A program made the translations under genes and the position numbers. Below the pieces are notes generated by a model. The model did no database searches. It saw only the letters and a program-made list of their open reading frames with translations, and was not told the DNA's origin. From NCBI RefSeq assembly GCF_003334385.1, contig NZ_QOWN01000224.1: 239 bases of DNA; one strand, 5' to 3'. Positions within the stretch are counted from its first letter, which is position 1; every line of letters starts with the position of its first letter. This document shows positions 42-239 of the stretch, one piece after another. Origin of the DNA: Escherichia coli. GTDB lineage: Bacteria > Pseudomonadota > Gammaproteobacteria > Enterobacterales > Enterobacteriaceae.

Positions 42-239
42 CAGCCTTCCGGTTGGCCCTTGTGGTCCCTGTGGTCCCTGTGGTCCGGTTTTACCATCCA
101 ACCCGGGCGGTCCCATCGGCCCTCGCCCTCCGGCAGGGCCCCGTGGCCCCGGAACACCCTGCGCCCCCGCTGGTCCCCTTTCACCTCGTGGCCCTGCCGG
201 ACCTGCCTTACCTTCCGCTCCGGCGGTACCATCCTTTCC
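1..239 (-). CDS. Collagen-like triple-helix repeat protein, internal fragment (partial at both ends; N-terminal side beyond position 239, C-terminal side beyond position 1)
   Basis: Reverse complement read in the frame whose first codon is complement(237..239) translates without stops as [79 protein letters not shown] (79 codons plus 2 bases). Gly occupies every third position for 22 consecutive triplets, which is the defining collagen signature. The plus-strand open frame is a low-complexity shadow of this. Confidence 0.8.
42..239 (-). other. Collagenous (Gly-X-Y)n domain: 22 uninterrupted triplets, 66 codons
   Basis: Codons 1-66 of the minus-strand frame. Pro is at X in 11 of 22 triplets and at Y in only 2 (GVP, GPP). 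Charged residues K, D, E, R are frequent. No interruption of Gly periodicity. Confidence 0.8.
60..86 (-). repeat. 9-bp tandem repeat, 3 copies, encoding (Gly-Pro-Gln)3
   Basis: Plus strand reads ttgtggtcc / ctgtggtcc / ctgtggtcc at 60-68, 69-77, 78-86. On the coding strand these are GGACCACAG, GGACCACAG, GGACCACAA; the only difference is a synonymous third-position change (CAG vs CAA). The adjacent unit at 51-59 (GGGCCAACC, GPT) is a diverged fourth copy. Confidence 0.85.

Follow-up and report, generated by a model that had tools for sequence, protein, structure and literature searches.

Does the short array of near-identical 9-bp units at the end of a collagen-like coding sequence of Escherichia coli change in copy number among strains, and if so, by what process and with what consequence for the encoded protein? 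The question was raised by an earlier note on a 239-nt stretch of E. coli DNA (hereafter the window, i.e., the whole stretch that was analysed), which pointed to this array as a likely site of copy-number variation. We approached it by identifying the gene to which the array belongs, by counting the units in related loci, and by weighing the mechanisms and functional meanings that could be ascribed to the differences found.

The repeat tract and the gene that carries it

The near-identical units reported in the earlier note at positions 51-86 of the window (three GPQ units and a diverged GPT unit) are present at exactly these coordinates. In frame 1 of the minus strand, the reverse complement of this region reads GGACCACAG GGACCACAG GGACCACAA GGGCCAACC. 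The polymorphic GPQ GPQ GPQ tract occupies positions 60-86 of the minus strand, where the first two units (GGACCACAG, positions 86-78 and 77-69) are the same in sequence, and the third one (GGACCACAA, positions 68-60) differs from them by a single synonymous base (CAG to CAA). It is followed by the diverged fourth unit, GPT (GGGCCAACC, positions 51-59, minus strand), in which four of nine bases differ from those of the GPQ unit, and is preceded by the triplet GKT (GGTAAAACC, positions 87-95, minus strand), which represents one of four upstream backgrounds found in related loci. Tandem Repeats Finder detected the array at positions 61-86 (period 9, 2.9 copies, 100% matches, score 52), and a separate repeat search recovered the same 9-bp family. 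The perfect period-9 tract is 26 nt long, with 17 consecutive positions at which s[i]=s[i+9]. A run of this length was reached in 0.46% of shuffles in which the 22 nine-base G-X-Y units of the window were permuted, and in 0.026% of those in which codons were permuted inside the G, X, and Y classes. Hence, the tract exceeds what the collagen composition yields and is unlikely to have arisen by chance (P of about 0.005 to 0.0003).

The window is open from end to end, so no complete ORF is contained in it. Its minus strand encodes in frame 1 an unbroken series of 22 G-X-Y triplets followed by non-collagen sequence. The triplets (positions 42-239, minus strand, from GKD to GRL) are matched by the Pfam Collagen family (PF01391) and constitute the 3' part of Col2, the second collagen-like (G-X-Y)n domain of the protein, while positions 1-41 of the same strand encode the start of a non-collagen C-terminal domain and include the conserved sequence that served as the anchor of our census. 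The gene was assigned to the minus strand because phage and genome annotations place it there. Two other readings of the window were dropped: frame 1 of the plus strand is open from base 28, which is a usual antisense by-product of G-X-Y coding, and an Rfam search of both strands gave no match at E<=1, which leaves no ground for an RNA reading. An inverted repeat with 18-nt arms (TCCGGCAGGGCCCCGTGG / CCTCGTGGCCCTGCCGGA, positions 129-146 and 184-201, 37 nt apart, 89% complementary) is also present in the window and is probably a by-product of the nearly self-complementary GGN-CCN collagen codons, which we regard as a candidate reading.

Comparison of the window with the genomes of E. coli temperate phages indicated PhiR12_5 as its nearest phage relative (95.8%), with other phages at 77-86%. 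Matches were also found in prophage genes of complete E. coli genomes, and the matched genes are annotated as encoding a 'tail fiber protein' or a 'prophage tail fiber N-terminal domain-containing protein'. A search of a plasmid collection with the window gave no match, and a survey of the literature on PhiR5/PhiR12 phages returned nothing relevant. The exact window is present in two IMG/VR prophage contigs (L023 and L024) of one genome (IMG taxon 643348545), which is probably that of E. coli ED1a, and the full ORF that contains it encodes a protein of 493 aa.

The N-terminal part of this protein is the PfN domain (phage_tail_N, PF08400, residues 1-134, E=2.2e-42). Four Pfam Collagen matches cover residues 135-239 and 299-399, and between the two collagen domains lies a Pf2 repeat (Phage_fiber_2, PF03406, residues 248-289, E=8e-16). 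The first collagen region (residues 136-241, 106 residues) consists of G-X-Y runs at residues 136-192 and 194-241, which are broken by GDPGGPPG, an interruption of the G-X-P-G-G-P-X-G form, and the second one, Col2, comprises residues 300-401 (102 residues). The GPQ tract corresponds to residues 387-395 and forms the final section of the stalk ahead of the GPT-GRL-VPG junction. The C-terminal domain proper begins with EIYSIG and has 89 residues (about 405-493). The PfC domain (PF06820) was not matched in the 493-aa ORF, nothing from Pfam was matched past residue 399, and a PDB sequence search with the C-terminal domain revealed no relative at E<0.1. The best PHROG match of the protein is PHROG 366 'tail fiber protein' (E=1.8e-126). 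As judged from its sequence, the protein is of the EPclC type (PfN, collagen, Pf2, collagen, and a non-PfC C-terminal domain), an architecture defined by Ghosh et al. 2012 (PMC3368898).

The genomic context is that of a tail module. In the 15 loci that were fetched (L001-L015), a gene encoding gpJ or a DUF6682 adaptor is located upstream of the fibre gene, and a DUF4376 or tail-fibre-assembly gene is located downstream of it, except for L004, where the downstream ORF is truncated by an IS. In L024, the fibre gene is preceded by an ORF of 1176 aa. Thus, what the minus strand of the window encodes is the distal end of a collagen stalk, which belongs to the side tail fibre of a lambdoid prophage. 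Two features of the neighbourhood are worth recording. In phage PhiR12_1 (L004), only a 126-bp ORF is left of the tail-fibre assembly gene, and genes encoding a transposase and its ATP-binding helper follow it; therefore, an IS element was inserted right behind the fibre gene. In most of these prophages (L002 and L005-L015), a gene encoding a protein with a YadA C-terminal domain, i.e., a YadA-like adhesin (trimeric autotransporter), is located about 0.4-0.9 kb past the DUF4376 gene, and it may be cargo (a 'moron') or a further fibre component.

Copy number of the GPQ unit in related loci

The census anchor was the sequence that immediately follows the tract and does not vary among the first 15 loci, and its exact matches were taken. 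They amounted to 92 loci, comprising the 15 fetched ones (L001-L015), 14 from IMG/VR, 61 from metagenome contigs (mostly of human gut), and two from complete genomes, which both have three copies, while the anchor was not found in GTDB species-representative genomes. The anchor and the C-terminal domain type associated with it are rare, as they occur in 28 of 5,426 complete E. coli genomes. To determine copy number, we counted the intact GGNCCNCAR units that immediately precede GPT, so that a few loci with a substituted unit (GPH or GPR) are counted among the 1-copy alleles.

The tract contains one unit in 15 loci, two in 63, three in 11, and four in two; in the remaining locus, L015, a substitution leaves no intact unit adjoining GPT (GPQ GLQ). 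When the units are described by the third base of their glutamine codon, six alleles can be distinguished: GA (63 loci), A (13), GGA (11), G (2), GGGA (1), and GAGA (1). In DNA alignments the alleles are separated by clean 9-bp gaps at the tract with the flanks otherwise unchanged, and PhiR12_5, for instance, differs from the window in this region by one unit and one substitution. The adjoining GPT unit is retained in its position and is encoded in all 92 loci, while its DNA sequence is not fully invariant (GGGCCAACA in L012). Each of the two 4-copy alleles comes from a single metagenome contig, one of which (L088) has a coverage of only about 2.7x.

Length differences occur within every one of the four upstream backgrounds. 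Two and three units were found where GKT follows GPP (...GPPGLDGKT), two, three, and four where GKT follows GLP (...GLPGLDGKT), and one, two, and three both in the GET background (...GPTGET) and in the GEP background (...GPTGEP). If each background started with one state, this distribution would imply at least eight independent length changes, a count that could be inflated by recombination spreading tract alleles across backgrounds. The differences are also seen between loci that are otherwise identical over long distances. L002 (GGA) and L008 (GA) match completely over the 246 nt that precede the tract and the 255 nt that follow it, and L005 (GA) and L021 (G) are identical over 253 and 221 nt of their flanks. 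Among loci grouped by identity of 100 nt on one side and 250 nt on the other, the tract is polymorphic in six of 12 groups, and 19 of 52 pairs differ in it. Because loci with identical flanks so often differ in the tract, its length would appear to shift at least as readily as the approximately 350 flanking bases gain one substitution, an estimate that recombination may exaggerate.

Close relatives have equal copy numbers, as exemplified by strains G1/2, G6/7, and G8, by three SW0716 strains, and by L023 and L024, so the tract is not visibly hypermutable. The variation is a population-level polymorphism. The expectation of the earlier note that strains would differ by multiples of 9 bp is therefore borne out by the comparison of the 92 loci, in which copy number ranges from one to four and is not uniform across isolates.

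The earlier note had named collapse or expansion of the repeat during assembly as a possible source of such differences, and a sequencing error would be another. Most of the census consists of contigs assembled from short metagenomic reads, some of them of low coverage, and the 4-copy alleles are singletons, which is what an artefact might look like. However, the tract of 9-36 bp is far shorter than a read, so that an assembler cannot collapse it; the 1-, 2-, and 3-copy alleles are each found in complete or closed genomes or phage genomes as well as in several independent assemblies; and every allele is in frame. We therefore consider an artefactual origin of the polymorphism extremely improbable.

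Replication slippage and recombination

The alleles have a structure that fits stepwise slippage. Expanded alleles carry CAG units added beside the terminal CAA unit (GGA and GGGA), and the GAGA allele has the form of a two-unit (18-bp) duplication. Single-unit alleles are of two kinds, with either the CAG unit (G) or the CAA unit (A) retained, from which it follows that contraction has occurred at least twice. The proposal that near-identity of the units reflects a recent duplication stood in part: it agrees with these data, because two copies are the commonest state and the extra units are CAG copies, but its age is undatable.

According to the account that we favour, the short array of 9-bp GGACCACAR units encoding GPQ right before the C-terminal domain would act as an in-frame VNTR. 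During replication the nascent strand would realign by one unit, or rarely by two, resulting in a gain or loss of 9 or 18 bp. As each change would involve a whole G-X-Y triplet, the reading frame and the register of the triple helix would be kept and the fibre would stay functional, and alleles of one to four units could therefore persist in the prophage population in a nearly neutral manner. We assign this account, in which the mechanism is inferred from allele structures, a probability of about 0.75.

Its main rival is unequal recombination or gene conversion among paralogous prophage tail-fibre genes, taking place within a cell or at co-infection and catalysed by RecA or by phage Rad52-like recombinases. 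Opportunities for such exchange are ample. Carriers of this C-terminal domain type contain it in a median of three places per genome and in up to eight, and in IMG taxon 643348545 four copies of the fibre gene (L021, L022, L023, and L024) have one, two, three, and three units, respectively. The two prophages of this genome that contain the exact window, L023 and L024, show no difference over at least 4.1 kb, a stretch that includes the end of the gpJ gene and the fibre gene, as conversion or duplication would predict, and this identity suggests a recent event of either kind between the prophages. The collagen domain is a mosaic, and the locus L071 from a metagenome contig is a hybrid that unites two alternative upstream families of collagen modules; therefore, recombination has occurred inside the collagen repeats. 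Moreover, relaxed homologous recombination is known to exchange tail-fibre regions among temperate phages (PMC3945230). Thus, recombination certainly shuffles the flanks of the tract. As a source of the unit number itself, it meets two difficulties. Once the register is shifted by 9 bp, no more than 17 bp within the tract remain identical, or 8 bp if the allele is the prevalent one of two copies, and the flanks are then out of register. According to published values of the minimal efficient pairing segment, RecA needs 31-34 bp and Red-beta 23-27 bp (PMC3945230), which disfavours unequal homologous exchange. In addition, pairs of loci that share several hundred identical bases on each side differ in the tract alone and show no imported patch. 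We consider it rather unlikely that recombination rather than slippage generated the length alleles.

The GPQ tract is the site of Col2 with the greatest number of length states, and it is not special in kind. Col2 has at least seven sites of in-frame indels, i.e., the tract and at least six others of 3, 6, 12, 12-15, and 18 residues, in addition to larger module replacements, and those of the other indels whose bounding sequences were checked are located between short direct repeats and are in frame. One of them lies inside the window, at positions 141-149 of the minus strand, where the window and L001 (PhiR12_5) lack, by a 36-bp in-frame deletion, the codons for VGPAGPAGKTGP that are present in most relatives (L002-L015 were compared). 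In undeleted alleles, a copy of the 7-bp direct repeat CGGGGCC is found at each end of the VGPAGPAGKTGP segment, and the deletion can be read as a second slippage-type indel of the window. At its junction, the window has CGG (Arg) in place of the CAG (Gln) of its relatives.

The collagen domains of individual loci have also undergone changes of other types. In L011 (E. coli SCU-104), a CAG codon of the collagen domain about 60 nt upstream of the tract has been changed to the stop codon TAG (GP*GPT), and the fibre gene is represented in RefSeq by two pseudogene fragments. In L041, from a metagenome contig, an unrelated sequence (KTEIQEYPRSGR...) takes the place of the collagen domain in its upstream part, which suggests a truncation or an insertion.

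Functional meaning of copy number and relation to known systems

As a collagen helix rises by 0.286 nm per residue, one GPQ unit corresponds to about 0.86 nm of the approximately 29 nm of Col2, i.e., to about 3% of the domain. Copy number shows no association with the haplotype of the C-terminal domain, and the commonest haplotypes each hold alleles of one to three or of two to four copies. On these two grounds, namely, the small contribution of one unit to the length of Col2 and the lack of a link to the C-terminal haplotype, the variation in copy number is probably nearly neutral. A role of the tract as a phase-variable contingency locus was rejected, as the unit is of 9 bp, none of the 92 alleles is out of frame, and every Col2 length is divisible by three, and we see no sign of a regulatory or switching role for it.

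The alternative to near-neutrality is that the number of GPQ units is tuned by selection. For example, the tract could be a proline-rich segment that nucleates folding or starts the zipper beside a C-terminal domain for trimerisation and receptor binding, and in this way set the stability of the triple helix or determine how far the distal knob reaches and how it is oriented, with different copy numbers suiting different hosts. The position of the tract, which in all cases immediately precedes the C-terminal domain, with a conserved GPT GRL junction after it, is in agreement with this possibility. Animal fibrillar collagens contain C-terminal Gly-Pro-Hyp runs, and by analogy with them a GPQ run could nucleate folding. 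Furthermore, GPQ is favoured in proteins of this family, being among their commonest triplets (12%), and the C-terminal domain of the related EPclA is described as a trimerisation module (PMC3368898). Against this stand the independence of copy number from the C-terminal haplotype, the predominance of two copies on every background, and the change of only about 3% of Col2 per unit. We thus regard tuning of copy number by selection as improbable. Its boldest version, according to which (GPQ)n would be a selected tunable element that plays, without hydroxyproline, the part of the C-terminal Gly-Pro-Hyp nucleation run in animal collagens, seems to us very doubtful. If it were true, copy number would set the nucleation of folding, the stability of the stalk, or the reach of the receptor-binding knob, and slippage would supply prophage populations with standing variation in fibre geometry.

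The 89-residue C-terminal domain (e.g., L006:2740-3013) is highly conserved save for a handful of freely recombining positions: A/G-P-Y-T/I, V-Q/S-G, CA-I/L-IKD-AS/EN/TS, DG-N/R/I/K-L, and N/H-DNE-G/S, one of which has four states. These positions resemble a limited group of residues that determine specificity in a putative receptor-binding tip.

The length polymorphism of the tract is confirmed and, at the same time, ordinary, as it is expected for genes of this kind. Both the gene family and the variation of its Col domains, whose lengths within each EPcl architecture typically differ by multiples of three residues, are already known (PMC3368898). That study gives no map of the sites of length differences, and what is new here is only the allelic series at the level of a single site (one to four GPQ units, six alleles, four backgrounds) and its recurrence on several backgrounds and between identical flanks. 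Beyond a good annotation, which allows the window to be named as the end of the stalk of an EPclC-type prophage side tail fibre, the significance of these results is slight. They provide a small documented example of the tolerance of collagen-coding repeats in phage fibres to in-frame slippage, and the tract might find minor use as a marker in typing the prophages concerned.

Among the characterised members of the family, the closest counterpart of the window's protein is ECED1_1681 of E. coli O81 ED1a, an EPclC protein of 493 aa with collagen domains of 106 and 102 residues (PMC3368898, Table 3). The two share the architecture, the total length, the lengths of both collagen domains, and the context of a prophage side tail fibre. 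From the length of the protein, the sizes of its domains, and its IMG genome of origin, and not from an accession match, we infer that the window derives from ECED1_1681 or from an identical paralogue; an exact look-up of the 493-aa protein in a collection of 15 billion proteins did not find it. A trimeric collagen triple helix has been shown experimentally only for EPclA and EPclB, and collagen-like sequences of this family are absent from the laboratory strain K-12 (PMC3368898).

The side tail fibres Stf of phage lambda and StfR of the Rac prophage resemble the window's protein in the presence of the PfN (PF08400) and Pf2 (PF03406) domains and in the position of their genes after the gpJ gene and before a gene of assembly type. 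Unlike them, the window's protein contains a pair of collagen domains, and its C-terminal domain is of another kind.

Membership in the Scl/Lcl adhesin families was considered and rejected, as the scores for NF038329, NF046116, and NF038330 were 129, 94, and 94 bits, respectively, versus cut-offs of 325, 500, and 400 bits, and these NCBIfam matches cover only the collagen composition. The likeness to these and similar proteins concerns the behaviour of the repeats. BclA of Bacillus anthracis/cereus and Scl1/Scl2 of Streptococcus pyogenes have length-polymorphic collagen-like regions, where, as in the GPQ tract, in-frame gain or loss of G-X-Y triplets between strains alters a trimeric stalk that bears a C- or N-terminal globular domain. 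However, BclA and Scl1/Scl2 are bacterial surface proteins with long arrays (tens of triplets and larger blocks) and large length ranges, while the array described here comprises only one to four units and belongs to a phage tail fibre. In the case of Lcl, the collagen-like adhesin of Legionella pneumophila, VNTR polymorphism among isolates has been described (PMC6460258). The number of tandem repeats varies in a collagen-like coding region, as it does here, whereas the protein family and the host are different, and the repeat number of Lcl has been linked to phenotype. Taken together, the GPQ repeat of these prophage side tail fibres behaves like the repeats of BclA, Scl, and Lcl, at a much smaller scale.
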